DNA from: Escherichia phage BME3
Length of the DNA stretch: 64,000 nucleotides
Sequence record: PP239276.1
Strand: one strand, 5' to 3'
This document shows positions 1 to 63,395 of the stretch, piece after piece (within the stretch, counting starts at the first letter, position 1; the number at the start of each line of letters is the position of its first letter). The position numbers and the translations under genes were made by a program. The notes beneath the pieces were generated by a model. It had not been told where the DNA came from and searched no databases. It saw only the letters and a list, made by a program, of their open reading frames with translations.

Positions 1-2
1 GT

Positions 3-224
3 TTGGTTCGTCCTATTAAGTATCTAATGAGTCAAAGCGAAGTTGATTTTAAAATTGCACTTTCACAACTTCCTTTGTATTATGTAGAACAACTGTTCTT
101 TGGTTGCCTTGCAGAAGGTTACAATAACATTGAAAAATACAAAGAGAACTTTGATTTCCTACGTCAATTTTTTGAAAGCAATATTATCGACAAATCTAAT
201 GTTAAAGGGGATTATTATGTCTAA
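3..224 (+). CDS. hypothetical protein, possibly 5' partial at window edge
   Basis: ORF in track opens at position 3 with a TTG; no recognisable motif. Confidence 0.3.
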   Translation: MVRPIKYLMSQSEVDFKIALSQLPLYYVEQLFFGCLAEGYNNIEKYKENFDFLRQFFESNIIDKSNVKGDYYV

Positions 225-933
225 TAAAGTAATGACTTTCGGAGATCCTATTACCAATATTACAGAAAAAGATTTTGGGCGCGTAGCAACAGATAAAGAT
301 GGTGTCTTAAGAATTCGTGTACAAGGCATTACAGCACAGGATGAATATGCTGTGTATGTTTCAGGTCTTAACTATATTGATGATCGCATTACACAAAACT
401 TTGCACTGATCGGTGGTGTAGAGAAAATGTACTGGGAAGATGAAATTGTAACAAGTTATCCAGCAGGTATCATTGAGGTATACGGTGATCTTTTAGCAGC
501 AGCCGAGAGAGGCGATATAGACGCTATAGCACACTGCTGTAACTGTTTTTGCACTATGGGTAGTGGTATTGCACCAAAAATTAAAAGCAAGTGGCCTGGT
601 GCGTTTAAAGCAGATTGTGCCACTACACGTGGTGATTATAAAAAATTAGGTACGTTTACCAAATATACAGAAAACAATTTGACAATTTATAATTTATATG
701 GACAATATGGTTATAGTCGTCGTGAGGAAGGTAAGCGTGACCTGAATTATGAAGCTATCTACAATGCGCTAGATAGTATGGGAGACGATGTTGTATCTTC
801 AGGCGGTAAAATTGTAGGTTTACCAATGCTTGGTTGTGGTTTGGCTGGAGGTTCTTGGAATATTGTAAAACTTATGATCGAAGAAACTCTAGTAAACAAA
901 GGTTTAAATGTAATTGTTTACAAACTGAAATAA
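217..933 (+). CDS. macro domain protein (TARG1/DarG-like ADP-ribose hydrolase family)
   Basis: ATG at 217 preceded by AAAGGGG RBS; motif DAIAHCCNCFCTMGSGIAPKIK resembles the TARG1/DarG-type macrodomain core; later LGCGLAGG glycine-rich stretch. Confidence 0.6.
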   Translation: MSNKVMTFGDPITNITEKDFGRVATDKDGVLRIRVQGITAQDEYAVYVSGLNYIDDRITQNFALIGGVEKMYWEDEIVTSYPAGIIEVYGDLLAAAERGDIDAIAHCCNCFCTMGSGIAPKIKSKWPGAFKADCATTRGDYKKLGTFTKYTENNLTIYNLYGQYGYSRREEGKRDLNYEAIYNALDSMGDDVVSSGGKIVGLPMLGCGLAGGSWNIVKLMIEETLVNKGLNVIVYKLK

Positions 934-942
934 GGAGAAAGT

Positions 943-1149
943 ATGGCAGGTGTTTTAGCAGTATTAGGTTGTTTTATTGTTGTGTTCTTGATTGTGTTAA
1001 TCCCTAGTTGGCTACTGCTTTTAGCATACAACTATATGATTGACATTATCGGCTTAGACTGGCATCATGTTCCTGTAACGTTTTGGAGTGTAGTCTGTGT
1101 GACGTTCATTCTTGCGGTACTCCGTGGTATCTTTCAATCTAACAAATAA
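943..1149 (+). CDS. small membrane protein (two hydrophobic segments)
   Basis: AAGGAGAAAG RBS before ATG; sequence LAVLGCFIVVFLIVLIPSWLLLLAY and VTFILAVL are hydrophobic. Confidence 0.5.
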   Translation: MAGVLAVLGCFIVVFLIVLIPSWLLLLAYNYMIDIIGLDWHHVPVTFWSVVCVTFILAVLRGIFQSNK

Positions 1150-1163
1150 GAGAGGATCTTTAT

Positions 1164-1412
1164 ATGCGTAAAGTAAATGTTGAAGTGCTTGAAAAATTTA
1201 TAAACACCCGTGATTGTACTATCGGCAAGGTTTACGAGGCTATTCTCATTGAAGATGGGGATGAAGTTCCTGCCCCGTATCATGCCTTTAACGGTCAGGT
1301 TAGCAAAGTGGAAGGTGGTCTTGCTATTTGCTTTATTGATGATGTAGGTGATGCTGTAGCTTTCCCTATCATTAACAAAGAAGATAAACTTAAAATTACA
1401 GAACTGAACTAG
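1164..1412 (+). CDS. hypothetical protein
   Basis: 82 aa ORF with upstream purine-rich RBS. Confidence 0.45.
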   Translation: MRKVNVEVLEKFINTRDCTIGKVYEAILIEDGDEVPAPYHAFNGQVSKVEGGLAICFIDDVGDAVAFPIINKEDKLKITELN

Positions 1413-1440
1413 TTGACTTTCTTTAAAAACAGTTTATAGT
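1413..1440 (+). promoter_or_regulatory. sigma70-like promoter (TTGACT - 16 nt - TATAGT) upstream of TerC-like gene
   Basis: TTGACT at 1413-1418 and TATAGT at 1435-1440 read directly. Confidence 0.5.
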
Positions 1441-1452
1441 ATAAGACATAGA

Positions 1453-1471
1453 GCGGAGGATTGTCCTCCGC
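1453..1471 (+). promoter_or_regulatory. leader hairpin GCGGAGGA-TTGT-CCTCCGC in 5' UTR of TerC-like gene
   Basis: perfect 7-8 bp inverted repeat between promoter and RBS; no T-run after it. Confidence 0.4.
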
Positions 1472-1489
1472 ATTAAAGAGGAGAAAAGA

Positions 1490-2467
1490 ATGCAACTGGG
1501 TTTCCCAATTATTGATGTGGTTGTTTTAGTGGGTATTTTAGTGTTGTCGATTTGTATTGATTTCTTTGGACACAGAGAAAACAAAGAAATTTCATTTAAA
1601 TCTGCAATTGGTTGGTCAATTTTCTGGATTGGGGTATCATTAGCCTACTATGGTTTTGTATACTTCCAACACGGTGCTGATTTTGCGAGCTTGTTTTTGA
1701 GTGGGTATGTGTTGGAGAAATCTCTTTCTGTAGATAACTTAGTAGTATTTGTGGCAGTATTCGCAAGTTTTGGTATTAAAAGCACACACTTGCAACACAA
1801 GATTCTACTTTGGGGTATTGCAGGTGCGATTGTCTTCCGAGGTGTGTTTGTAGCAGTAGGCACTTACTTGTTGAGTTTGGGCTGGTATGTTAATATCTTC
1901 TTCGGTGCGGTCATCCTTTTCTGTGCAGCTAAAATGGTATTCGCTGGAGATAATGACGCAGAAGTTGATTACTCTAAACACTGGGCTACTCGCATTGTTC
2001 GTAAACTGTTCCCTGTATCTGATCAGATGGATGGCGAGAAGTTCTTCACAATCAAAAATGGTGTTCGTGTAGCAACTCCGGCTCTGGTTTGTGTGTTTGT
2101 AATGGAAATGGTTGACGTAATCTTTGCAGTAGACTCTGTTCCAGCAGTAATTGCAGTGACACAAGAACCTCTGCTTGTATTTTCTTCAATGCTGTGTGCA
2201 ATTTTAGGTTTACGTGCTCTGTTCTTTGTCCTTAGTGTTGCACTGAAATATTTGGTTCATCTGGAGAAAGCAGTTATCGTAGTCCTGGTATTTGTGGGTG
2301 TAAAACTGATGTATCACCCGTTTGCAGAAACTCTGCACGCAAAAGTGAGTTTCCTGCCAGCACACATTGATCCGACGATCAGTATGTATATTGTGTTAGG
2401 TACTCTGGGGCTGGGTGTTATTGCAAGTTTAATCTTCCCTGAAAAAGAAGACCAAGCTGTTGCTTAA
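1490..2467 (+). CDS. TerC family integral membrane protein
   Basis: multi-pass hydrophobic protein with the TerC-family signature LEKSLSVDNL and a second DxxFAVDS segment; AAAGAGGAG RBS. Confidence 0.7.
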   Translation: MQLGFPIIDVVVLVGILVLSICIDFFGHRENKEISFKSAIGWSIFWIGVSLAYYGFVYFQHGADFASLFLSGYVLEKSLSVDNLVVFVAVFASFGIKSTHLQHKILLWGIAGAIVFRGVFVAVGTYLLSLGWYVNIFFGAVILFCAAKMVFAGDNDAEVDYSKHWATRIVRKLFPVSDQMDGEKFFTIKNGVRVATPALVCVFVMEMVDVIFAVDSVPAVIAVTQEPLLVFSSMLCAILGLRALFFVLSVALKYLVHLEKAVIVVLVFVGVKLMYHPFAETLHAKVSFLPAHIDPTISMYIVLGTLGLGVIASLIFPEKEDQAVA

Positions 2468-2473
2468 TTCATT

Positions 2474-2495
2474 AAGCCCCTTCGGGGGCTTTGTT
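2474..2495 (+). terminator. rho-independent terminator
   Basis: AAGCCCC-TTCG-GGGGCTT hairpin followed by TGTT. Confidence 0.6.
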
Positions 2496-2506
2496 GAGGT
2501 GATCTG

Positions 2507-2713
2507 ATGGTGGTTTTACGTGTTCTTTGGATTCTGTTTGAAAATATTTGTTTTGCTCTAGGGTTGTTTTGTTTGATTTTTATCTTGACAACATATATTG
2601 ATAACCATACAATTACTATCAACAGGAACGGAGAACAGATGTATTGTTTCTCTAGGGATTTTAAAAATTGTGTTGAGACTTTAAATGAGAGGGTTACAAA
2701 TGAAAAACATTAA
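2507..2713 (+). CDS. hypothetical small protein
   Basis: 68 aa ORF after terminator, GAGGTGA RBS; hydrophobic N-terminus. Confidence 0.3.
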   Translation: MVVLRVLWILFENICFALGLFCLIFILTTYIDNHTITINRNGEQMYCFSRDFKNCVETLNERVTNEKH

Positions 2714-3290
2714 ATCTTTTATTGTTGCAGTTGTTTTAGGTAGTGCATTGTTGGTAGGTTGTGATGATTCTGAAAATGTACAAAACCAACGTTACCAACA
2801 AACACCAAATCAGATGGTAGATGAACAATATGTAAATCAACCTGCACCTCAAGTTGTTCAAGCAGCACCTGCACAACCTTCAACAGTTGTTGTGCAAGGA
2901 GGCGGTAGTGGTTCTTCTGGCGTAGGTGAGTTTGCTACAGGTATGCTTCTTGGTCATATGTTGAGTGGTAATAGTGGCGGTGGTGGTTATAGGGATGGTG
3001 GTAGCAGCACAACAATTATTAATAACAACGCTGCTCCTACAACTAACAATAAAGCATATACAACACAAAAGCATAGTTTTTATGATAAACAAGGAAATAC
3101 ATATACAACCACTAAACAAAACACAATTAAGCAGCAAAGTGTACAAACGTATTCACGCCCATCAACAACAAAAGTGAATAGTGATTACTCTGCTCGTAAG
3201 TCTTACTCAAGTCCTATTAGCTCTTATAGTAAGTCTTCGAAAAGTTATTCTTCGTCGAAACGTAGTTTTAGTAGCTCACGTCGTCGTTAA
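2700..3290 (+). CDS. putative lipoprotein, Ser/Thr/Gly-rich low complexity
   Basis: MKNIKSFIVAVVLGSALLVGC lipobox-like signal peptide; internal ATG at 2700 with GAGGG RBS preferred over 2685. Confidence 0.5.
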   Translation: MKNIKSFIVAVVLGSALLVGCDDSENVQNQRYQQTPNQMVDEQYVNQPAPQVVQAAPAQPSTVVVQGGGSGSSGVGEFATGMLLGHMLSGNSGGGGYRDGGSSTTIINNNAAPTTNNKAYTTQKHSFYDKQGNTYTTTKQNTIKQQSVQTYSRPSTTKVNSDYSARKSYSSPISSYSKSSKSYSSSKRSFSSSRRR

Positions 3291-3325
3291 TAATTTAATA
3301 CAGATTAAACAAGAAGGAGAAACAG

Positions 3326-4177
3326 ATGAAACTAGAAGTTGGTAAAGTGTATCGCCTGGAAGGTTGGATCTTTAATCAAGAAATTCTTGAGAAGAATAAA
3401 GATGGTTTTGAGTTTGTTGGTACTACCCAGGAAAGTATGCACGATGATGAATACTGTAAATTCGTTGGTAAAAATACAGGTCAAGAACAATTTTGCTTTA
3501 AGAGCGCAATCGGTGATTATGCTTCTGTAATGCCAACACCAGAAAAAACTCCGAAGCAATATACTGTCTTTGGTGTAAAACTTGAAGAACTTGTAGAACA
3601 CCCACGTTTTGAAGAGTTCAAGGTTGCTGCAATGTGCAAGCATTCTGAAATTAAAATACATAATTTGTTTGATTTAGAAGATCGGTTTGATATCTTTATG
3701 TATGATCGCAGGGAAAAGCATTTTGATGCAACGACTTCAAAATTTGCTGCAACAGAGGATATTAAAATTCTTGATGTTGATACCTTTCTTCAGAATGTAT
3801 CGTTTGTATTCATTCCTAAGTACAAAAAACGTAGTGATCATAAACGTGTGAAAGGAACTCCTCGTAAGAAACGTACTGTAAACAAAGCAACTTTGCACTT
3901 CACTTCTGGTGATAAGTATACTCTCAAAGGGTTTGAAAGTGTTTTGTATGATGCTGGAACGGGTAATATCAAGTTTATCATTAAGGCAACCTACAAAGGT
4001 ACGGTATTACACGAAGAGGCTGTTACACTACCTGTATTCGATATCTCTCGTGTTGAGGTACGGGGTGTTAAAGAGTCCTTCGATCTGGATTTCTTAACCA
4101 CTAATGCTACTGGTTATGTTAATCTGGAAGCAGATGGGGCGTTTATTACTACAAATTATTTAGATATGTTTGTTTAA
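3326..4177 (+). CDS. hypothetical protein
   Basis: 283 aa ORF, AAGGAGAAACAG RBS. Confidence 0.55.
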   Translation: MKLEVGKVYRLEGWIFNQEILEKNKDGFEFVGTTQESMHDDEYCKFVGKNTGQEQFCFKSAIGDYASVMPTPEKTPKQYTVFGVKLEELVEHPRFEEFKVAAMCKHSEIKIHNLFDLEDRFDIFMYDRREKHFDATTSKFAATEDIKILDVDTFLQNVSFVFIPKYKKRSDHKRVKGTPRKKRTVNKATLHFTSGDKYTLKGFESVLYDAGTGNIKFIIKATYKGTVLHEEAVTLPVFDISRVEVRGVKESFDLDFLTTNATGYVNLEADGAFITTNYLDMFV

Positions 4178-4245
4178 TACTTAATTTGTGTTATGATGGT
4201 GGTACAGAGGTATCACCATCTACTAAAGAATATGGAGGAAATTGA

Positions 4246-5349
4246 ATGTCCAGTCCTTTTATCAGTGCCGTAAAAAGCAAACCGTCTGAAATGAGTGTAT
4301 TCACGGCAACAACAGAAAAAAGTAAGTCTTTGTTTGCTCCAAGTGCTATGGATGCAAGCCCTGTATATGCACCTGCTGTTGCACGACCTGTACAAATGCT
4401 GCCTCCAATGTCTCGTGAAGAGATTGAACAGGTTGGTGCTGATGCAGGACTTACTCTTCGTAACCTTAATGCTGAAGTGCTTAAACACCAGCGTTCATCT
4501 CAGGGAGATGAAATGAGTGAACGTTTAACTGCACTTATTAAGCAAGCAAAGCAACTTGATCCTAATTCTATTAAACAATCTAAAGGTTTAGGTAAGTTAG
4601 TTAAGAAAGTATTAGGTATGAAAGAAGATTTGTTTGGAGAATTTGACACCATCAATAATCGTATTGAAGGTTTGGTAAAGACACTCCAAACAGACTTGAA
4701 AAAAGAAGAAGATTCTTTACGATATCTGCAACGTTTAGAAGAGGCTATTGCAAAATATGCTCTTAGCTTAAACAGAGATATAGAGCTTCTAACAGCTACG
4801 TATGAAAAAGAAGAAGTTCGCCTTAATACACTACCTGAAAATGAAGTAGAAGAGCGTCAACGTACTCGTGATACTATGGATCTGCTTGAAATTCGTATTG
4901 CAGACCTGAAAGCATTACGTTTACTCTGTGTTCAGATGGGGCCACGTGTACAAAGTATGCAGAAAGTATCTGCAAGTTTGATGCGATCAGCACGTAACAT
5001 TGTGAATAATGTTATCCCTGCTTACTCTGCAAACTTTTCTATGTATATTGAAAGTCTACGCCAGAAGAAAGCAGCCGATACACAGAACAATGTACTGAAT
5101 GAATTTAATGCTGCTATTGCAATGGGTAGTGATCTGGCTGCACAAAACCAAATTGAAGCTACACAACTTGCTAATCGTCAAGTATTGGATATTGAAACAC
5201 TACGTCGCGATCAAGAAAACTTAGTTAAAATGTTGGAAGAAACTAACCGAATCAACACTGAAGCCCGTGCTGCTCGTATTGATTACATCCAAGAAGTGCA
5301 ATCTCTTGAAGATGGTATGATTCAAACTGTTAAACGTGGTCTACTTTAA
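4246..5349 (+). CDS. TelA-like (toxic anion resistance family) coiled-coil protein
   Basis: 367 aa, long helical heptad-rich sequence with layout similar to TelA/KlaA; TGGAGGAAATTGA RBS. Confidence 0.5.
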   Translation: MSSPFISAVKSKPSEMSVFTATTEKSKSLFAPSAMDASPVYAPAVARPVQMLPPMSREEIEQVGADAGLTLRNLNAEVLKHQRSSQGDEMSERLTALIKQAKQLDPNSIKQSKGLGKLVKKVLGMKEDLFGEFDTINNRIEGLVKTLQTDLKKEEDSLRYLQRLEEAIAKYALSLNRDIELLTATYEKEEVRLNTLPENEVEERQRTRDTMDLLEIRIADLKALRLLCVQMGPRVQSMQKVSASLMRSARNIVNNVIPAYSANFSMYIESLRQKKAADTQNNVLNEFNAAIAMGSDLAAQNQIEATQLANRQVLDIETLRRDQENLVKMLEETNRINTEARAARIDYIQEVQSLEDGMIQTVKRGLL

Positions 5350-5362
5350 GGAGAAATATATT

Positions 5363-5569
5363 ATGAATATTAAAATTTACAAACTGTCTGGTTCTATGAT
5401 TGCTGTCCAGTACGACAATGAAGATCGTTATGTTCTCCTCCAGGATGCTTGGTTAGATGATCCTAATGTATTCACTGTCCTGCGAGAACTACGTTCTGTC
5501 TATACCTATTCTTCTAAAGATGGTTTTGATAGTTCAACGATGGAATTGGTAAAAGAGGAGAATGTGTAA
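5363..5569 (+). CDS. hypothetical protein
   Basis: internal ATG at 5363 with AAGGAG RBS; start codon overlaps upstream stop. Confidence 0.45.
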   Translation: MNIKIYKLSGSMIAVQYDNEDRYVLLQDAWLDDPNVFTVLRELRSVYTYSSKDGFDSSTMELVKEENV

Positions 5570-5769
5570 TGAGTAAAGATATTCACTTAACTCGTGAAGA
5601 GTTACAAACCATTATGGAAGATGCTTTCATTGATGGTTGGAAACAAGGTCAAGAGTCAGATTGGTATGATGCCGAAGATTTTTTGTATTATCATATGACT
5701 GCACCTGTAGACGAGCAAACACACTCTGAAACAACTTTGGCTTTAATTGATCTTAAGGCTGGTGTATAA
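5569..5769 (+). CDS. hypothetical protein
   Basis: 66 aa, translationally coupled (TAATG overlap), AAGAGGAG RBS. Confidence 0.5.
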   Translation: MSKDIHLTREELQTIMEDAFIDGWKQGQESDWYDAEDFLYYHMTAPVDEQTHSETTLALIDLKAGV

Positions 5770-6332
5770 TGGGGTGTTTTAGTTTCTTGTGCAAAGAGTC
5801 TGGTAATGCTGCTCTTTCTACCTCTTTCGATGGCTCTCCTTGCTACCTATTTCTTTTGAAAGGTGGTAAAGTTGTTGAAGAGATGTATGGCAATTATGAT
5901 AGCTATGGTAGTGTTTTCTCTAACGAAGAAGATAAACATGGCAATCGTAAAAGATTCAAGTGGTCTATGCCTTGGGAAGAAGTTTGTAATTTGATGTTCT
6001 CTTCCGATCCTGGGGATGGTATCGCTATGATATTAGAAGAGCACTTTACAGGTGAGATCCCAACAGAAAGATCTGAAGAAGACCCTAACCAGGGCTGGGG
6101 TGATGGAGAAGAAGATCCAGATTGCTTCTTCAGTATTGAAAATAATAAATTTAAACGTGTTGACAATCCTTACCACAAAGTGCATAATACTTGCATTGAG
6201 ACAGAAGAAGACTCAAAGCTAGAAATTGAAGATGATTTAGTTGTAACTATCTCTTTAAACGAGTTACAAAAGATCACCAGAGAGGCTTTCTACTTAGGCT
6301 TGAGAGCAGGTAAAGGAGAAGACAGTGCTTAA
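5769..6332 (+). CDS. hypothetical acidic protein
   Basis: 187 aa ORF, coupled start. Confidence 0.5.
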   Translation: MGCFSFLCKESGNAALSTSFDGSPCYLFLLKGGKVVEEMYGNYDSYGSVFSNEEDKHGNRKRFKWSMPWEEVCNLMFSSDPGDGIAMILEEHFTGEIPTERSEEDPNQGWGDGEEDPDCFFSIENNKFKRVDNPYHKVHNTCIETEEDSKLEIEDDLVVTISLNELQKITREAFYLGLRAGKGEDSA

Positions 6333-6594
6333 ATTTAATATCAAAGACGACAAATCAGATGAACCTAAATGTTTTGGAGAACTTGACGCAGGTGATACAT
6401 TCGTATATTATGTTGCCTATCAAGATGCTGGTTTAGATACGTTCAGAAACTTAGTGTTTATTAAGATTAATACAAACCAAGCAATGTGTCTGAACGGTTC
6501 ACAAAGAGGTCAACTTAACTGTATCTTATATGATACAGAAGTGGTAGAAGTGGATTTAGAAGTTACTAACATTACAGTCAGAAAGGAGAAATAA
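6325..6594 (+). CDS. hypothetical protein
   Basis: GTG start at 6325 with AAGGAG RBS 6 nt upstream. Confidence 0.45.
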   Translation: MLKFNIKDDKSDEPKCFGELDAGDTFVYYVAYQDAGLDTFRNLVFIKINTNQAMCLNGSQRGQLNCILYDTEVVEVDLEVTNITVRKEK

Positions 6595-6595
6595 T

Positions 6596-7390
6596 ATGTC
6601 CAATAAAATCAGTCTTAAAAAACGTCAAGAAACTCTTACTGTATCTCTGCGTAAGAAAAAGATTAACGATGTTGTTCTTCGTGTCGGTAGCGCCTTAGAT
6701 ATTTCGGGCAGTATGTGTGAACTGTATCGTGATGGCACTGTTAGTGATTTTGTAGGTAAACTGCTGCCGTTTGGTATGAAGTTTGATGATAATGCACAGA
6801 TTGACATGTGGGCTTTCAATAGTTCTTCTTTTGAACTGCCTCCTGCAACGGCTGATGTGTATGATGATTATGTCGGCTCTTGCATGTCTAATGTTTGCAT
6901 CAACGGTGGTACAGCCTATGCTCCAGTAATGCAAGAGATCTATGATACATACTTCGGTAGTGTACCTATGAAAAATATTACACGCGAAGTCGTTGAGTAT
7001 GAAGAAGTTCCGGCTAAAGGTTTCCTTGCTAAACTAACTGGTAAAAAAGAACTTGTAGAAGTAACACGTACTATTGTAGAACAGGTTGTAGATACTGATG
7101 CACAAGTTGATCGTACTCCTGCAATGATTTTCTTCCAAACTGATGGGGAGAACATGGATACTTCAGCAGTACGTAGCTTACTGAACAAACACCGCAACAC
7201 GCCTGTTTACTGGTTTATGGTCGGTGTAGGTAATGCAAACTTTAAATTCCTGAAAGACTTGGCAAAAGAATACGATAATGTTGATTTTATCGGTATTGCA
7301 GATTTGTCCTTGTCTGATGAAGAACTTTACGATAAACTGTTATCCGAAGAGTTTGGTGAGTGGGTTAAAAAATTCGGAGCAAAAGCGTAA
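6596..7390 (+). CDS. von Willebrand factor A (vWA) domain protein, TerY-like
   Basis: MIDAS-like motif LDISGSM near N-terminus; GAAAGGAGAAATAAT RBS. Confidence 0.6.
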   Translation: MSNKISLKKRQETLTVSLRKKKINDVVLRVGSALDISGSMCELYRDGTVSDFVGKLLPFGMKFDDNAQIDMWAFNSSSFELPPATADVYDDYVGSCMSNVCINGGTAYAPVMQEIYDTYFGSVPMKNITREVVEYEEVPAKGFLAKLTGKKELVEVTRTIVEQVVDTDAQVDRTPAMIFFQTDGENMDTSAVRSLLNKHRNTPVYWFMVGVGNANFKFLKDLAKEYDNVDFIGIADLSLSDEELYDKLLSEEFGEWVKKFGAKA

Positions 7391-7397
7391 AAAACGC

Positions 7398-7425
7398 TTG
7401 ACTTTGTAGAAAAGATTAGTAAAAT
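7398..7425 (+). promoter_or_regulatory. sigma70-like promoter (TTGACT ... TAAAAT) upstream of TerD-like gene
   Basis: TTGACT 7398-7403, TAAAAT near 7420-7425. Confidence 0.45.
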
Positions 7426-7462
7426 AGACAACGTAAATTAACAACAAAGGAGATAATAAATT

Positions 7463-8059
7463 ATGACTCAGAAAATTTCCCTGAAAAAAGGTTCTAGCGA
7501 AAAAATTTCTCTGAAAAAGATCGCACCAGCACTGAAACGCATTCGCCTGGAATTCTCTTGGAAATCTAACGAAAAACTGGATCTGGATGTTAGTGCTCTG
7601 ATTTGCCGACACAATGCATCTGGTCTGCCGGAACTGTTGTCTCCTCGTCACCTGGTGTGCTACGCGCAGAAATTTGATCCTGAACGTTCTACTTTTGCAG
7701 GTGAAGATGTTCGTGATGGTGTAGGGCAGATGGAACAGATTGATGTTACACTGGATAATATCTCTGCTGAAGCACAGGAAATTGCATTCGTAATTACTAT
7801 TGATGATGAAACGGGTAAGAAACGCCTTGGTCACGCTACCGAAGGTTTCCTTAAAATCTTCGATGATGAACGTAATGTTGAACTGCTGGACTTTGACTTC
7901 TTGGCCCCAGAACTTGCAGGTAACACCATTTGCCACGTTGCCTCCCTGGTGCGGGAAGATAGCGAATGGAAACTGAAAGCATATGGTGTAGGTAAAGCTG
8001 GGCTTGACATTTACGATGTAGTTAAAGCGTTTGGCGCTGGCGACGATTGGTTCGAGTAA
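7463..8059 (+). CDS. TerD domain protein
   Basis: N-terminal duplicated ISLKKG/ISLKK motif, D/E-rich core (ITIDDETG) and C-terminal WKLKAYGVG, all typical of TerD family. Confidence 0.7.
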   Translation: MTQKISLKKGSSEKISLKKIAPALKRIRLEFSWKSNEKLDLDVSALICRHNASGLPELLSPRHLVCYAQKFDPERSTFAGEDVRDGVGQMEQIDVTLDNISAEAQEIAFVITIDDETGKKRLGHATEGFLKIFDDERNVELLDFDFLAPELAGNTICHVASLVREDSEWKLKAYGVGKAGLDIYDVVKAFGAGDDWFE

Positions 8060-8078
8060 TAAGTCAAGTAATAAATCA

Positions 8079-8104
8079 TAGCGCCCTTCGGGGCGCATAT
8101 TTAA
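8079..8104 (+). terminator. rho-independent terminator
   Basis: GCGCCC-TTCG-GGGCGC hairpin then AT-rich tail. Confidence 0.5.
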
Positions 8105-8123
8105 AATAAAAGAGGAGAAAACA

Positions 8124-8726
8124 ATGAGTATTACTTTAGAAGGTCAAAAACTTATTCGCAGCGGCAATTTTCTTGTAGATATTGACAACAATGAAGATTA
8201 TGCTTTAGAAGTTAGTGATGTGCTGTTTGATGCTTTGCAGTCTGGTTTCAATTTTGAAGTTTATGAAGTAATCCGTGGAACTAAACTCAGAGAAACCCTT
8301 GGATCATCTAGTGATGTTTATTCGGCAATCTGGCAATATTTCGGGTTAATGGATGGTAAGACATATCTTACTGATAGTTATTCTGAAGATGTTGTTTATC
8401 TTGATATGGAAGAGTTTCGTCGTCTGTTCAAAAGTGAAGAAAATGAAGAAGAGGGTGAACTTTTTGAAGGAATTACTCTCGAAGGTAATGTTGAAATTGT
8501 GTATAAAGCAGGAAAAACATTCCACTTACGTGAAAACGGTAAAGCAAAAGTTGATTTTGTAAACAAGACAGTGACAACTGAACATAATTATCTTAAAGAT
8601 GGTCAACCAGCTTTTGAACGTGTAAAAATTAAATTTAAAGTGTTATCTGCACTAGTCACGGATCAAGAACGTATTGATTTTGTAGAAGATGGTGTAGTAA
8701 CTCATACAAAGGTTTACAATATCTAA
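8124..8726 (+). CDS. hypothetical protein
   Basis: 200 aa ORF, AAGAGGAGAAAACA RBS. Confidence 0.55.
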   Translation: MSITLEGQKLIRSGNFLVDIDNNEDYALEVSDVLFDALQSGFNFEVYEVIRGTKLRETLGSSSDVYSAIWQYFGLMDGKTYLTDSYSEDVVYLDMEEFRRLFKSEENEEEGELFEGITLEGNVEIVYKAGKTFHLRENGKAKVDFVNKTVTTEHNYLKDGQPAFERVKIKFKVLSALVTDQERIDFVEDGVVTHTKVYNI

Positions 8727-8758
8727 CAGAGTGTAAGAGGGGGATAGTCCCCCTCCAC

Positions 8759-8787
8759 TTGCAAAATAGCCTCTTCTGTGTTACAAT
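8759..8787 (+). promoter_or_regulatory. promoter with extended -10 (TTGCAA - 17 nt - TGtTACAAT)
   Basis: TTGCAA at 8759-8764, TG at 8779-8780, TACAAT at 8782-8787. Confidence 0.5.
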
Positions 8788-8818
8788 AAAAGTTCGTTTA
8801 ACAAAATAGGAGGCAAGT

Positions 8819-9328
8819 TTGTCAATAAAAACCTTTGTCGCAATTGCGTTACTATCCTTAACTGCTTTTACATTTACACCTGTTGTGGCGCAAGCCGAAG
8901 CTGCAAACGTAAAAACTGCTAAAGTAGTTCACAAGTGTACAAAGCGTGATAGTAAAGAAAATCTATTAGCTTGTGCAATCTATGCAGAAAGTCGTAATCA
9001 AGGAAAGCGCGGTATGTCTGCTGTTGGTAATGTAGTATTGAACAGGGCAAGAGATTCATATTTCCCTGATACTATAAAAGAAGTTTTGTTTCAAAAAGGA
9101 CAATTCTCTTACACGAAGACATTCAACGTTATGGAACACGATAAGTGGAAGGAAGCTAAGGCTATAGCAGAACGTCTACTTTATCTCGAAAACCATTTTC
9201 CAGAATTACGAATTGCATTAGATATTACAAAAGGAGCATTATACTTTAAAAAATCTACAATAAAAGCACACTGGGAAAAAGATATGGTTCTAGTGTACCG
9301 CTACAAAGAACATCAATTCTATCGCTAA
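8819..9328 (+). CDS. SleB-like cell wall hydrolase with signal peptide (candidate secreted endolysin)
   Basis: TTG start after AGGAGG RBS; signal-like AIALLSLTAFTFTPVVAQA; motif CAIYAESRNQGKRGMSAVGNVVLNR with QFSY resembles SleB/Hydrolase_2 family. Confidence 0.55.
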   Translation: MSIKTFVAIALLSLTAFTFTPVVAQAEAANVKTAKVVHKCTKRDSKENLLACAIYAESRNQGKRGMSAVGNVVLNRARDSYFPDTIKEVLFQKGQFSYTKTFNVMEHDKWKEAKAIAERLLYLENHFPELRIALDITKGALYFKKSTIKAHWEKDMVLVYRYKEHQFYR

Positions 9329-60598: not shown

Positions 60599-60695
60599 TG
60601 GCAGCAAGGTGAGGAATCGAACCCCTTGATCTATGGTTTGGAGCCATATTGAGTACCATACTCTTTTAAATCTACCCGGCTATGAGTTCCTTGAA
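60599..60695 (-). tRNA. tRNA-like, possible Trp(CCA); 5' half aberrant, 5' end uncertain
   Basis: CCA, acceptor 3' strand, T-loop AATCGAA and canonical anticodon arm with loop CUCCAAA; no matching 5' acceptor strand at expected distance. Confidence 0.3.
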
Positions 60696-60739
60696 GTGTC
60701 AATGTAACTTAATCATTACACCAGAAGGGAGGTATTTAT

Positions 60740-60818
60740 TGGAGGCGGGAGTAGGATTTGAACCTACGATCTCCAGCATATGAAACTGGCGAGGACGACC
60801 AGACTCCTCTATCCCGCG
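60740..60818 (-). tRNA. tRNA-Met/Ile2 (CAU), CCA encoded
   Basis: T-arm GTAGG-ATTTGAA-CCTAC, anticodon loop UUCAUAU, D arm with 11 nt loop, 1:72 mismatch. Confidence 0.6.
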
Positions 60819-60833
60819 CAATCTGTAGTAATT

Positions 60834-60909
60834 TGGTTGATAGTAAGAGAATCGAACTCTTCTCGCAATGCCTTATGAAAGCACTCGAAACGCCAGCTTC
60901 ACACTATCA
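60834..60909 (-). tRNA. tRNA, probable CAU anticodon, atypical anticodon-arm register
   Basis: perfect 7 bp acceptor and T-arm AAGAG-AATCGAA-CTCTT, CCA encoded; anticodon arm only folds with 6 nt variable loop. Confidence 0.45.
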
Positions 60910-60997
60910 ATGGCTAACCCTTTATAACCCGTCTTGGCGTGGTATCCTTAACAGGACGGTAGATATCCGTTGCAAACCCTATGATATCTCTTAGATA

Positions 60998-61082
60998 TGG
61001 TAGCTAAGGTGAGACTCGAACTCACAATCCCTTGGGGCAATACGTTCTAAGCGTATCGTGTATACCATTCCACCACTTAGCC
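60998..61082 (-). tRNA. tRNA-Leu (UAG), type II
   Basis: CCA, acceptor, T-arm GTGAG-ACTCGAA-CTCAC, 14 nt variable arm, anticodon loop CUUAGAA. Confidence 0.7.
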
Positions 61083-61158
61083 ATAAAAATACACCACTGT
61101 AAGAAGCCTCAATGTGCTATTGACAGTTAACCAAGTCTACTCCTTGGATGGTGATATT

Positions 61159-61233
61159 TGGTGCAGAGAGATGGTAACGATCCATCCTTTCTACCTTTTC
61201 AGGGTAGCACTAATCCGTCTCAGCTATCTCTGC
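61159..61233 (-). tRNA. tRNA-Phe (GAA)
   Basis: CCA, perfect acceptor, anticodon stem CTACC/GGTAG with loop CUGAAAA; non-canonical T-loop. Confidence 0.55.
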
Positions 61234-61238
61234 AAATT

Positions 61239-61314
61239 TGGTCAGTGCGGCAGGACTCGAACCTGCGACCTGAAGCGTCCAAGGCTCCCACGCTACCAAC
61301 TGCGCTACGCACTG
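61239..61314 (-). tRNA. tRNA-Pro (UGG)
   Basis: CCA, perfect acceptor, T-arm GCAGG-ACTCGAA-CCTGC, anticodon loop CUUGGAC. Confidence 0.7.
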
Positions 61315-61321
61315 TAAATCT

Positions 61322-61396
61322 TGGCTGGAGATCTAGGAATCGAACCTAGTCATCACGACTTCAAAGGCCGTTGCCTTCCCACTAGGCTAATCTCCA
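61322..61396 (-). tRNA. tRNA-Gln (UUG)
   Basis: CCA, perfect acceptor, T-arm CTAGG-AATCGAA-CCTAG, anticodon loop CUUUGAA. Confidence 0.7.
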
Positions 61397-61495
61397 ATAA
61401 AACTAAAAATCACTTAAAAAGAACCGCTAGAGTTTGAAGGAGAAAACCATGAGCGAAAAGAGAAATTTTCTCTAGCGATTCCATTTAAATAATCT

Positions 61496-61570
61496 TGGAG
61501 CGAGTAACAGGACTTGAACCTGCACCTGGAGGGTGGAAACCTCATATGCTACCATTAACACTATACCCGC
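61496..61570 (-). tRNA. tRNA-Gly (UCC)
   Basis: CCA, perfect acceptor, T-loop ACTTGAA, anticodon loop UUUCCAC. Confidence 0.6.
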
Positions 61571-61582
61571 TTAACAATATTA

Positions 61583-61611
61583 CTCTAACATATTATTAGC
61601 CCCTTTGTCAA
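61583..61611 (-). promoter_or_regulatory. minus-strand promoter upstream of tRNA block (TTGACAA - N16 - TTAGAG)
   Basis: reverse complement reads TTGACAAAGGGGCTAATAATATGTTAGAG; predicted start a few nt upstream of tRNA 5' end. Confidence 0.5.
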
Positions 61612-61625
61612 GAGGCTTTTGATAT

Positions 61626-61955
61626 TTATTTTAAAATAGTAGATGAACCACGTCTGTTTAGATATGCAATAGTAAAGTCCAAATCACCTATTTCTTCAGG
61701 TTCCCACTGACCTTCTAAGCCATAACAAGAACAATGATATGCGTGTACTTCATAAAACAAAGATGTTTTCATATCATAAAAATAAACGTGAGATTCACCT
61801 TCATAATATGCACAATCATAAGTGGCAGAAAGAATTACAATGTTATCCTTATCTAACTCTACTTCATAATATCTTTCAACATCTTCAATATGATCAAAAC
61901 CATCGAAAACATTGATATTAAAATATTTCTCTAACTCTTTTTCTGTCACATACAC
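61626..61955 (-). CDS. hypothetical protein embedded in tRNA region
   Basis: 109 aa ORF between tRNA genes. Confidence 0.5.
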   Translation of the reverse strand: MYVTEKELEKYFNINVFDGFDHIEDVERYYEVELDKDNIVILSATYDCAYYEGESHVYFYDMKTSLFYEVHAYHCSCYGLEGQWEPEEIGDLDFTIAYLNRRGSSTILK

Positions 61956-61972
61956 TCCTTTAGAGTTAAAAT

Positions 61973-62047
61973 TGGTGCTCCCACAAGGACTCGAACCCTG
62001 ATAAGTTGCTTACAAGGCAACCGTAATAGCCGTTATACGATAGGAGC
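61973..62047 (-). tRNA. tRNA-Thr (UGU)
   Basis: CCA, acceptor with G-U pairs, T-loop ACTCGAA, anticodon stem GTTGC/GCAAC loop CUUGUAA. Confidence 0.65.
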
Positions 62048-62053
62048 AATACT

Positions 62054-62130
62054 TGGACTCGACAGGATTCGATACCTGCAATTCCAGAAGCCTCTTGGCG
62101 ACTGGGGGTTTACCTTAACTCTACAAGTCC
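62054..62130 (-). tRNA. tRNA-like, atypical (8-nt T-loop, unresolved anticodon arm)
   Basis: 7 bp acceptor pairing 62055-62061 with 62124-62130; T-arm folds only with 8-nt loop ATTCGATA. Confidence 0.3.
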
Positions 62131-62137
62131 ATAATTC

Positions 62138-62222
62138 TGGCGATGGATCAAGGATTTGAACCTTGCTAGAACTTTCGTTCACGGATTAACAGTCCGTCGC
62201 CCAACCACTAGGCCAATCCATC
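62138..62222 (-). tRNA. type II tRNA whose anticodon reads GUU
   Basis: CCA, perfect acceptor, T-arm CAAGG-ATTTGAA-CCTTG, variable-arm hairpin GAAC-TTTC-GTTC, anticodon stem ACGGA/TCCGT loop CUGUUAA. Confidence 0.5.
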
Positions 62223-62229
62223 TTTAATT

Positions 62230-62316
62230 TGGTGCAGGTAGTTGGACTCGAACCAACGAAGCCCAGAAGGGCAAGAGATTTACAGTCTCCAGCAATTGCC
62301 GCTATGCGATACCTAC
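62230..62316 (-). tRNA. tRNA-Tyr (GUA), type II
   Basis: CCA, perfect acceptor, T-arm GTTGG-ACTCGAA-CCAAC, 16 nt variable arm, anticodon loop CUGUAAA. Confidence 0.7.
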
Positions 62317-62321
62317 GTGTT

Positions 62322-62397
62322 TGGTACATCGTGAAGGATTCGAACCTTCGACCTTGGAGTTAAAAGCCCCTTGCTCTACCAACTAAGCTAACGATGT
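62322..62397 (-). tRNA. tRNA-Lys (UUU)
   Basis: CCA, perfect acceptor, T-arm GAAGG-ATTCGAA-CCTTC, anticodon loop CUUUUAA. Confidence 0.65.
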
Positions 62398-62522
62398 ATA
62401 AATTATCTTTAAAATAGCCAGTGTTTGCGGCACTTGACTATGGGATATCGGTAAGATGGTGGGGCCATCTGCCGAAAGTTTACTCTGTTAAAGTAAGATG
62501 ACAAGCTACATTAAAGATAACT

Positions 62523-62608
62523 TGGCGGTAGATGTAGGACTTGAACCTACACGCCGTTTCCGACGACAGTTTAGCAAACTGTTGTGGCTACCATTTCACC
62601 AATCTACC
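62523..62608 (-). tRNA. tRNA-Ser (GCU), type II
   Basis: CCA, perfect acceptor, T-arm GTAGG-ACTTGAA-CCTAC, long variable arm, anticodon stem ACAGT/ACTGT loop UUGCUAA. Confidence 0.7.
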
Positions 62609-62616
62609 GTTCTTAA

Positions 62617-62769
62617 TTATTCAAAACAACCGGAATCTTTTTGTTCTGCTTTTACCATACGAATATTTTTACCATCTTCAGATTGTTGAAGATTAGAATA
62701 CTCATAAATAACTTTATTATCTACAATCTTAACTCCGGTAACAACCTGTCCAATAGTTTTATAATTCAT
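62617..62769 (-). CDS. hypothetical small protein
   Basis: internal ATG at 62769 with AGGAGC RBS; track ORF to 62817 would overlap the next tRNA. Confidence 0.35.
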   Translation of the reverse strand: MNYKTIGQVVTGVKIVDNKVIYEYSNLQQSEDGKNIRMVKAEQKDSGCFE

Positions 62770-62787
62770 AAAGCTCCTAGTTGAATT

Positions 62788-62877
62788 TGGAGGAAGATAA
62801 TGGAGTCGAACCATCACCGTATCGCTACAATGGGCCAGGGTTCAAACCTGGTTGCGCACCGCTGCGCCCTACCTTCC
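62788..62877 (-). tRNA. tRNA-Ser (UGA), type II
   Basis: CCA, acceptor, T-loop AGTCGAA, 19 nt variable arm, anticodon stem CCAGG/CCTGG loop UUUGAAC. Confidence 0.65.
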
Positions 62878-62893
62878 CGTTATCATACTTTAA

Positions 62894-62922
62894 ATCTAAC
62901 ATAAAACTATGTTGCTTGTCAA
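62894..62922 (-). promoter_or_regulatory. minus-strand promoter (TTGACAA - 17 nt - TTAGAT)
   Basis: reverse complement reads TTGACAAGCAACATAGTTTTATGTTAGAT, about 15 nt upstream of tRNA 5' end. Confidence 0.5.
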
Positions 62923-62940
62923 GTAGTTTTTAAAACTTTT

Positions 62941-63022
62941 TGGCCGGGGTGACAGGATTCGAACCTGCATACTCCAATTACTCGGTTAACGCCTGATTAG
63001 AAGTCAGGTGAGATACACCCCG
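62941..63022 (-). tRNA. tRNA-like with Arg(UCU) anticodon arm, apparently lacking a normal D arm
   Basis: CCA, perfect GC-rich 7 bp acceptor, T-arm ACAGG-ATTCGAA-CCTGC, anticodon stem CCTGA/TCAGG loop CUUCUAA; only 7 nt between anticodon stem and 5' acceptor strand. Confidence 0.4.
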
Positions 63023-63092
63023 TTTTCACAGTAACTATAACAAAAAACTAAGTAAATGTCAAGATATTTTTTACTAAATTGCTATTTAAATT

Positions 63093-63165
63093 GAAGCCTA
63101 GTTATGGAATCGAACCATATTTCGTATTTAGTTAGACAAAGCGATCTAACATATTTTTCAGGCTT
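63093..63165 (-). tRNA. tRNA-like, atypical (no encoded CCA; internal hairpin has 8-nt loop)
   Basis: perfect T-arm TATGG-AATCGAA-CCATA; 7 bp acceptor possible only with 2-nt offset. Confidence 0.35.
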
Positions 63166-63202
63166 TGATGGCCTCGGAATTACCAAATACCCTACCAGGC
63201 GT

Positions 63203-63288
63203 TGGTGCAAGTGGAGGGATTCGAACCCTCAATCATTTAAGCGTTGCGTTTTAAGCACAATGTGTATCACCAATTCCACCACACTTGC
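63203..63288 (-). tRNA. tRNA-Leu (UAA), type II
   Basis: CCA, perfect acceptor, T-arm GAGGG-ATTCGAA-CCCTC, 13 nt variable arm, anticodon loop CUUAAAA. Confidence 0.7.
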
Positions 63289-63319
63289 ATATAGGAGATG
63301 CATAGCACCTCCTTTTAAA

Positions 63320-63395
63320 TGGTGGTTCCCCAGGGTTACAATCCCTGCCCTCGACACTTATGAGGTGTGCGCTCTCGTCAGTGAGCTATGGAACC
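63320..63395 (-). tRNA. tRNA-Met/Ile2 (CAU)
   Basis: CCA, 6 bp acceptor, D stem GCTC/GAGC, anticodon loop CUCAUAA, T-stem CAGGG/CCCTG with non-canonical loop. Confidence 0.55.

Follow-up and report, generated by a model that had tools for sequence, protein, structure and literature searches.

The described proteins closest to the subject of this study, a macro domain protein encoded at positions 217–933 (+ strand) of a 64,000-nucleotide stretch of Escherichia phage BME3 (PP239276.1; this whole stretch is called the window below), include the Adpp protein of Vibrio phage Gary, the T4 protein Tk.4 and the bacterial enzyme SCO6735. Gary Adpp, encoded between Adps and Namat, dephosphorylates ADP-ribose-1''-phosphate (ADPR-1''-P), the product of the RES-domain defence aRES (bioRxiv 10.64898/2026.01.28.702374). 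The purified enzyme converts ADPR-1''-P to ADP-ribose (ADPR), and it is needed for NARP1-AP to overcome aRES by rebuilding NAD+ (Osterman et al., bioRxiv 10.64898/2026.01.28.702374). In that study a macro gene had to lie within two genes of the Adps/Namat pair to be counted as NARP1-AP (Osterman et al. 2026), and such a neighbour was reported for 15% of NARP1 operons. Clones of the defence itself came from E. coli, Klebsiella and Enterobacter, the host range of BME3-type phage, and the published list of NARP1-adjacent macro genes contains no enterobacterial phage (bioRxiv 10.64898/2026.01.28.702374).

The other precedents concern ADP-ribosylated DNA. T4 Tk.4, since renamed AdfM, was reported as the one gene that the phage needs to grow on DarTG2 (bioRxiv 10.1101/2025.11.20.689424). 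SCO6735 from Streptomyces coelicolor (PDB 5E3B) efficiently removes DarT-made thymidine-linked ADPR from single-stranded DNA (ssDNA) and rescues cells from DarT (PMC9411070). Its activity depends on Gln85, Asn27, His24/Val25 and Gly126/128, and it lacks the Lys84/Asp125 dyad of TARG1; Gln85 is the positional equivalent of TARG1 Lys84 and DarG Lys80, so that in a site of this type a Gln, positioned by a conserved Asn, replaces the catalytic Lys (PMC9411070). A chimallivirus protein also called AdfM (PhiKZ gp104) removes thymidine-linked ADPR from DNA with a DarG-type Asn23/Lys78 site and is imported into the phage nucleus (PMC13309987). Like the BME3 protein, it is a phage macro domain, in its case deployed as a counter-defence against ADP-ribosylation, but it belongs to a different subfamily.

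The BME3 gene is a complete open reading frame (ORF) that runs from an ATG at 217 to a TAA at 931–933 and encodes 238 amino acids (aa) in two modules, an N-terminal module (N-module; residues 1–84, positions 217–468) and a macro domain (residues 85–238, positions 469–930), both on the + strand. The ORF and its macro domain had already been picked out in a first reading of the letters alone (the original prediction), and both were confirmed. An alternative ATG at 199 is used in the GenBank annotation of phage Bas62 (P0001, 244 aa). Because a Shine-Dalgarno-like AAGGGG lies at 205–210 (+), 6 nt 5' of the ATG at 217, and no such site accompanies the ATG at 199, the start at 217 was preferred. A scan of the sequence for promoters and terminators gave counts no better than those in shuffled sequence.

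Residues 85–238 can be assigned with high confidence, on profile matches and a predicted structure, to the macro domains of TARG1/DarG-class (ALC1-like) fold. Pfam PF01661 matches residues 106–217 at 31.2 bits (gathering cut-off 22; E = 2.3e-7), and the 238-aa protein matches PHROG 335 ('phosphatase') with E = 6.6e-65. A phmmer search of the PDB returned SCO6735 (E = 4.7e-15), BT1257 (5e-15), TARG1 (4e-10) and DarG (1e-3). The AlphaFold2 model has a pLDDT mostly above 90 over residues 85–238, and Foldseek aligned it at a probability of 1.00 and TM-scores of 0.70–0.90 with many solved macro domains, as a three-layer alpha/beta/alpha macro fold. The target-normalised TM-scores were 0.87–0.90 for TARG1, 0.82 for BT1257, 0.80 for DarG, 0.78 for SCO6735 and 0.71–0.75 for Poa1p. 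The macro domain proposed in the original prediction, and the fold-level likeness to TARG1 and DarG that it had suggested checking, were thus borne out.

The same prediction had gone further and read a TARG1/DarG-like catalytic core in the C-terminal half, citing DAIAHCCNCFCTMGSGIAPKIK (residues 102–123; 520–585, + strand). Here the fold class stands, and so do the ADPR-binding loops shared with TARG1/OARD1 and DarG, but the chemistry does not. Within the cited motif, His106/Cys107 and Asn109 align with SCO6735 His24/Val25 and Asn27. The codon of Gln163 (703–705, +) falls in the column of TARG1 Lys84, DarG Lys80 and SCO6735 Gln85 (IYYLITK aligned with IYNLYGQ). The diphosphate-binding loop GCGLAGG (residues 206–212; 832–852, +) puts Ala210 in the column of TARG1 Asp125, with GCGLD in TARG1 versus GCGLA here. 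Altogether His106, Asn109, Gln163, Gly165 and the G206-C-G-L-A-G-G212 loop align with SCO6735 His24, Asn27, Gln85, Gly87 and Gly126/128, and Asn109 and Gln163 are invariant in alignments of the phage family. The TARG1 dyad Lys84/Asp125 is therefore missing, and the catalytic Lys80 of DarG is replaced. Since Gln163 and Ala210 occupy the Lys and Asp columns, the enzyme is of SCO6735 (Gln) type rather than TARG1 or DarG type.

The DarG profiles agree with this. With the NCBIfam equivalog NF048014 the protein reaches 50 bits where the cut-off is 250, and the alignment spans profile positions 4–147 of 338 only, while the PADLOC DarG model covers only the macro part (positions 6–144 of 329; E = 7.7e-14). 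The C-terminal DarT-binding domain of DarG was not found in the macro protein with either profile. No DarT gene adjoins the macro gene, whose neighbours encode a ComF-like phosphoribosyltransferase (PRTase) and a 68-aa hydrophobic protein.

Amongst relatives, the macro domain is 44.7% identical to that of the Pakpunavirus PaGz-1, 40.5% to Gary Adpp in a trimmed alignment (40.9% over 154 aa, E = 4e-33), 34.2% to T4 Tk.4 and 33.1% to SCO6735. The PaGz-1 macro gene lies two genes from Adps/Namat and appears in Table S1 of the aRES paper. Gary Adpp shares with the BME3 protein PHROG 335, the motif H-x-C-N-C-F, a YGQY followed by a long loop and the GCGLAGGxW loop, and genomes nearly identical to BME3 carry a putative Adps/Namat-type pair; it differs in that the BME3 gene is ~63 kb from the pair rather than between its two genes, carries the extra 84-aa N-module and sits in a ComF-like PRTase/Ter-like setting. 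Tk.4, likewise a coliphage macro protein of PHROG 335 with a Gln-type site and a GCG[LI]AGGxW loop, is ~34% identical over residues 88–236. In Tk.4 the motif is YTQY and the loop that follows the Gln is short; there is no N-module, and the gene is located between vs and tk. It is a stand-alone counter-defence gene, with no NARP1-type gene in the 5.4 kb examined around it. SCO6735 has the same His/Asn/Gln/Gly set, a long basic mobile loop and no TARG1 Lys/Asp dyad, but it is a single-domain protein of a cellular bacterium with a pI of 9.7 and a reported SOS-type promoter. Because Gary Adpp, T4-type Tk.4 and the BME3 protein have Gln-type motifs in common and match the same solved relatives, we treat them as one family with two reported activities.

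The window derives from a phi92-like E. coli myovirus (Stephanstirmvirinae, Justusliebigvirus), and over its first 6 kb it shares 98.6% identity with Escherichia phage Antha and ~50 other phi92-like phages. The macro protein is 100% identical in phage vB_EcoM_AMO3598 and is kept at 95–100% identity in 54 phage genomes or records, where relatives annotate it as 'phosphatase' or 'putative macrodomain protein'. By tblastn the macro part was matched in ~2,900 phage records, T4-type Tk.4 among them, and just 69 of these span at least 80% of the query. The macro domain is common, the N-terminal extension is not.

These near-identical genomes supply what the window does not. No Adps or Namat gene was found by tblastn in the 64,000 nt, whereas in Antha (PP925826.1, 109139–111837, − strand; L013 11140–13838) a Namat-like gene (NAPRTase family) and an Adps-like gene (PRPS-like) adjoin as a NARP1-type pair, which begins ~140 bp beyond the point corresponding to the window end (past 64000). 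The Antha pair is 38–44% identical to the pairs of Gary, JSF10 and PaGz-1 and has the same Pfam domains. More widely, linkage to NARP1 is frequent among the nearest relatives from outside the lineage, and in ~30 of 80 IMG/VR loci Adps- or Namat-like genes occur no more than 8 kb from the macro homologue. Given the pair ~63 kb away in near-identical genomes, the role we place first for the macro gene, as a tentative preference drawn from homology and gene content, is that of an Adpp-like ADPR-1''-P phosphatase. With this pair, and with aRES present in E. coli, Klebsiella and Enterobacter, an Adpp activity would have a pathway to feed.

The proposed mechanism would run as follows. Host aRES would split NAD+ into nicotinamide and ADPR-1''-P. 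The Gln-type macro hydrolase would bind the ADPR moiety and cleave the substituent at ribose C1'', here stripping the 1''-phosphate, and so free ADPR. The putative phage Adps/Namat pair (NARP1), ~63 kb away, would then rebuild NAD+ from ADPR and nicotinamide, and the whole would amount to a NARP1-AP pathway with dispersed genes. The N-terminal beta-barrel would serve as the lineage's adaptor for nucleotide-handling enzymes, probably localising or regulating them.

Several observations weigh against an Adpp-like role. The macro gene is ~63 kb from the Antha-type pair and on the opposite strand, well outside the two-gene limit applied in the NARP1-AP census, and the Antha genes are identified as a putative Adps and Namat by homology, with a presumed ADPR-specific activity. 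T4 Tk.4 has the same PHROG and motifs yet acts against DarTG2, and SCO6735, the best sequence match in the PDB, is a DNA de-ADP-ribosylase (PMC9411070). The N-module is Tudor/KOW-like, which hints that the partner is a macromolecule and not a small-molecule substrate. No published biochemistry or genetics was found for phi92-like phages, and the NARP1 prototype Bas63 is a Felixounavirus and not a member of the BME3 lineage. Finally, a neighbour-joining tree of 84 macro domains with bootstrap did not place the BME3 protein with Adpp. In this tree the protein falls in a clade of seven (bootstrap 74), all with PRTase_3/Ter neighbours, and NARP1-linked members are spread over at least five clades. 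At bootstrap values of 16–33%, the deeper nodes do not show either Adpp or Tk.4 to be its sister.

A number of shortcuts to a decision were tried and set aside. Phylogeny could not arbitrate between Adpp and AdfM at that depth. A signature of 'YGQY + long loop' versus 'YTQY + short loop' was rejected as a marker of activity because NARP1-adjacent proteins of Acinetobacter phages have YTQY, and because SCO6735, a DNA enzyme, has the GQ and long loop. Bas63 was considered as a close relative offering direct experimental data and was dropped on account of its genus. The gene upstream of the macro gene was considered as an Adps in a local NARP1-AP operon and rejected, being a ComF-like PRTase (PF15610) and not PRPS-like. 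NARP3 was likewise rejected as a home for the PRTase, the HAD hydrolase described below and the macro protein, as it consists of PnuC and NadR.

Second to the Adpp-like role, as a possible if more doubtful explanation and a close rival, we rank an anti-DarT2 factor, which would remove ADPR from the thymidines of phage ssDNA by the water-mediated Gln/Asn mechanism of SCO6735, as proposed for T4 Tk.4. This was also the suggestion of the original prediction, which had named reversal of DarT-like toxins, and it has precedent: SCO6735 (E = 4.7e-15 to the BME3 protein) cleaves DarT-made thymidine-linked ADPR through Gln85, Asn27 and Gly128, all of which are conserved here (PMC9411070), and Tk.4, 34% identical, is the single HIDEN-SEQ match needed on DarTG2 (bioRxiv 10.1101/2025.11.20.689424). 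The support described for Tk.4 consists of genetics and structural similarity, and Tk.4 is less similar to the BME3 protein (34.2%) than Adpp is (40.5%) and belongs to a clade with the YTQY and short loop. The phage DNA enzyme with biochemical proof, PhiKZ AdfM, is of the other, Lys type (N23/K78; PMC13309987). The match of the PADLOC DarG model to the macro part would count in favour of an anti-DarT2 role, but Gary Adpp matches the same model about equally (3.2e-12), so DarG-likeness cannot discriminate between the two roles. The long loop after Gln163 is basic (R168, R169, K173, R174) and resembles the mobile loop of SCO6735 implicated in DNA binding (PMC9411070), and the Tudor/KOW-like N-module could bind nucleic acid. 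Against this, the full-length protein is acidic (pI 5.2, versus 9.7 for SCO6735; the macro domain alone has a pI of 7.7), which is a weak point as Tk.4 is acidic too; net charge was accordingly discarded as an indicator of DNA binding. Overall the anti-DarT idea keeps its precedents, and the ADPR-1''-P phosphatase activity of Adpp fits at least as well. Both reactions free ADPR from a C1'' substituent, which makes a single site capable of both plausible, and anti-DarT2 activity may coexist with an Adpp-like activity in one promiscuous active site.

The N-module, like the Ter-like setting described below, is an unusual feature of this protein. The original prediction had given a 100-aa N-terminal extension without recognisable motif; it is nearer 84 aa, and it is a recurrent small beta-barrel module. 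It is a small all-beta domain, Tudor/KOW-like, with the motif D-x-GR-[IV]-A-x(4)-G ... [IL]-GG-x-x-M-[FY]-W-E-D, and its fusion to the macro domain is confined to Justusliebigvirus and a single metagenomic relative (P0002, 53% identity). Sister phages have instead a separate gene of 184 aa (L004 6457–7011) that stands between the PRTase_3 and macro genes. The first ~85 residues of its product are homologous to residues 10–88 of the BME3 protein, also by profile hidden Markov model (HMM), while a MazG-like pyrophosphatase makes up the second half (PHROG 1247, E = 1.7e-23, with a weak Pfam MazG match). An exhaustive search of 1.84 billion representatives yielded few further copies: P0123 with the same MazG-like fusion, P0124 with another C-terminus and P0126 standing alone. 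A word-indexed profile search for a deeper N-module family gave nothing but fragments. Residues 1–84 are a rare but recurrent module acquired by fusion and shared with the MazG-like fusions.

Some further observations touch on this module. The other fused gene (L003/P0002) groups in the tree with the unfused relatives L004, L015 and L016 and not with Justusliebigvirus, so the fusion may have arisen twice, although support is weak. The C-terminus of P0124 resembles by eye part of the protein encoded at 3326–4177 of the window (HYKTGESYTIKN versus HFTSGDKYTLKG). In six IMG/VR loci (L021, L023, L024 and L027–L029) a homologue of the 184-aa ORF lies directly 5' of a macro gene of 42–46% identity; the N-module HMM was silent on these homologues, whose match is presumably to the MazG-like half. 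Where the locus reaches far enough (L024, L028 and L029), TelA-/TerF-like genes occur 6–8 kb downstream, and no PRTase_3, HAD or TerC was detected in any of the six loci.

The left end of the window (1–9328, + strand) is a phage-borne ter-like cluster, all genes of which lie on the + strand. The macro gene is preceded by the 3' end of the ComF-like PRTase_3 gene (1–224), whose stop codon (222–224) overlaps the macro start by 8 nt; the whole gene, as seen in Bas62 (L001 8367–9224), matches Pfam PF15610 with E = 1.1e-41 and follows a HAD hydrolase gene (PF00702). Directly 3' of the macro gene is the gene for the small hydrophobic, probably transmembrane, protein of 68 aa (943–1149; PHROG 16065), and a gene of 66–77 aa has the same position in L003, L004 and L006. 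Then come a TerC-family membrane protein (1490–2467; PF03741, E = 1.2e-38), a lipoprotein-like Ser/Gly-rich ORF with an LLVGC lipobox (2685–3290), a PHROG 27504 protein (3326–4177), a TelA-like protein (4246–5349; PF05816, E = 5.1e-34), a vWA-TerF-like protein (6596–7390; PF10138, E = 1.5e-38), a TerD-domain protein (7463–8059; PF02342, E = 4.8e-28) and a SleB-like cell-wall hydrolase (8819–9328). The order HAD, PRTase_3, (N-module-MazG-like), macro, transmembrane protein, TerC, TelA, TerF, TerD is conserved across the lineage, including Phapecoctavirus and metagenomic relatives.

The cluster has the HAD, PRTase, TerC, TelA, vWA-TerF and TerD genes of the Ter stress-response system (Anantharaman, Iyer & Aravind 2012, via PMC7824862, PMC11994780), and its PRTase and HAD pair is linked to TerC, TerD, TelA and TerF in the manner that defines a Ter-associated biosynthetic module. 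The Ter system is proposed to include a PRTase and a HAD enzyme making a nucleoside-like signal, phage versions are noted (PMC7824862, PMC11994780), and a macro domain is not among the components described. It is conceivable, though we consider it unlikely, that the macro protein is a component of this module, processing a ribose-phosphate or ADPR-like metabolite from the ComF-like PRTase and HAD phosphatase (and MazG-like enzyme in sisters) into a product that TerD, TerC, TelA and TerF would sense; stress signalling and superinfection exclusion are examples of a purpose. The 8-nt overlap with the PRTase_3 gene, the conserved order and the presence of the N-module in both the macro protein and its MazG-like neighbour fit such a role, as does the proposed signal. 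The adjacency is, however, limited to one related group of ~150-kb phages. A scan of viral sequences gave three distant phage contigs with HAD-PRTase_3 (L099, L100 and L101), of which two also have Ter genes in the vicinity, and in all three the 8 kb around these genes lack both a macro gene and the N-module. None of the macro loci surveyed outside the lineage has PRTase_3, HAD or TerC nearby, although a few have TelA/TerF-like genes; a scan of genome contigs for independent co-occurrence of PRTase_3 and macro genes found one close phage-like metagenome-assembled genome only. Linkage of the macro gene to Ter may thus be inherited synteny, and no known chemistry joins a macro domain to the products of the PRTase and HAD enzymes. 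A more specific version is a long shot: the N-module would be a docking module bringing the macro domain (or, in sisters, the MazG-like pyrophosphatase) to a Ter membrane complex of TerC, TelA, TerF and TerD, and the PRTase-HAD-MazG-macro set would make or degrade an ADPR-related signal controlling that complex, e.g. in superinfection exclusion.

In L101 (6855–13223), a jumbo-phage contig of 211 kb, HAD and PRTase_3 genes with one small ORF between them are followed by a 361-aa ORF of no known family and a 487-aa Namat-like gene, an arrangement that hints at a separate link between PRTase_3 and NAD.

The weakest explanation, which we regard as improbable, makes the protein an eraser of some other ADPR derivative apart from DarT and aRES, for example by O-acetyl-ADPR deacetylation or protein de-ADP-ribosylation downstream of a phage Sir2-family enzyme: near-identical genomes do encode a canonical SIR2-family protein (PF02146, E = 4e-22), and O-acetyl-ADPR or Glu/Asp-linked protein ADPR is a further substrate of TARG1/OARD1 and SCO6735 (PMC9411070; PDB depositor names), but the Sir2 gene is ~46 kb off, outside the window and without demonstrated conserved linkage, and such a role is not reported for any phage member of the macro family. 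The Sir2 gene (Antha PP925826.1, 1209–2021; L011) encodes an NAD+ consumer that could yield O-acetyl-ADPR or ADP-ribosylated substrates.

Elsewhere in the window, the region ~6000–55000 has ~2.1 kb more sequence than Antha, at some point after the ter cluster and before the portal gene, and the coordinate offset between window and Antha shifts from 47394 to 45288. Sixteen tRNA genes are clustered at 60518–63395 (− strand), three of them for tRNA-Met (CAT). Upstream of the window, as seen in Bas62 (L001 1–1528), the annotation of close relatives has a UvrD/Rep helicase with an intein, a few kb before the cluster begins.

The macro family is already known and recently characterised; what is new here is the fusion to the N-module, together with a location away from NARP1 and among Ter/PRTase genes. 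A docking role for the N-module, if true, would be the first tie of the long-enigmatic Ter system to ADPR/NAD+ chemistry, and the swap by which this module sits on a macro domain in some phages and on a MazG-like enzyme in others is a small concrete handle on the Ter/PRTase system. For the family, two counter-defence activities were reported in 2025–2026, restoration of NAD+ after RES-type depletion and reversal of DarT2 DNA ADP-ribosylation. Hosts of BME3-type phage can carry both aRES and DarTG2, and the BME3 protein, from an E. coli phage lineage with a NARP1-type pair, is a test case for bifunctional Gln-type phage macro domains. The census of NARP1-AP was based on adjacency and missed the BME3-type gene. 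If an Adpp can indeed act in trans to a distant Adps/Namat pair, extended NAD+ reconstitution would be more widespread among phages than the reported share of NARP1 operons.

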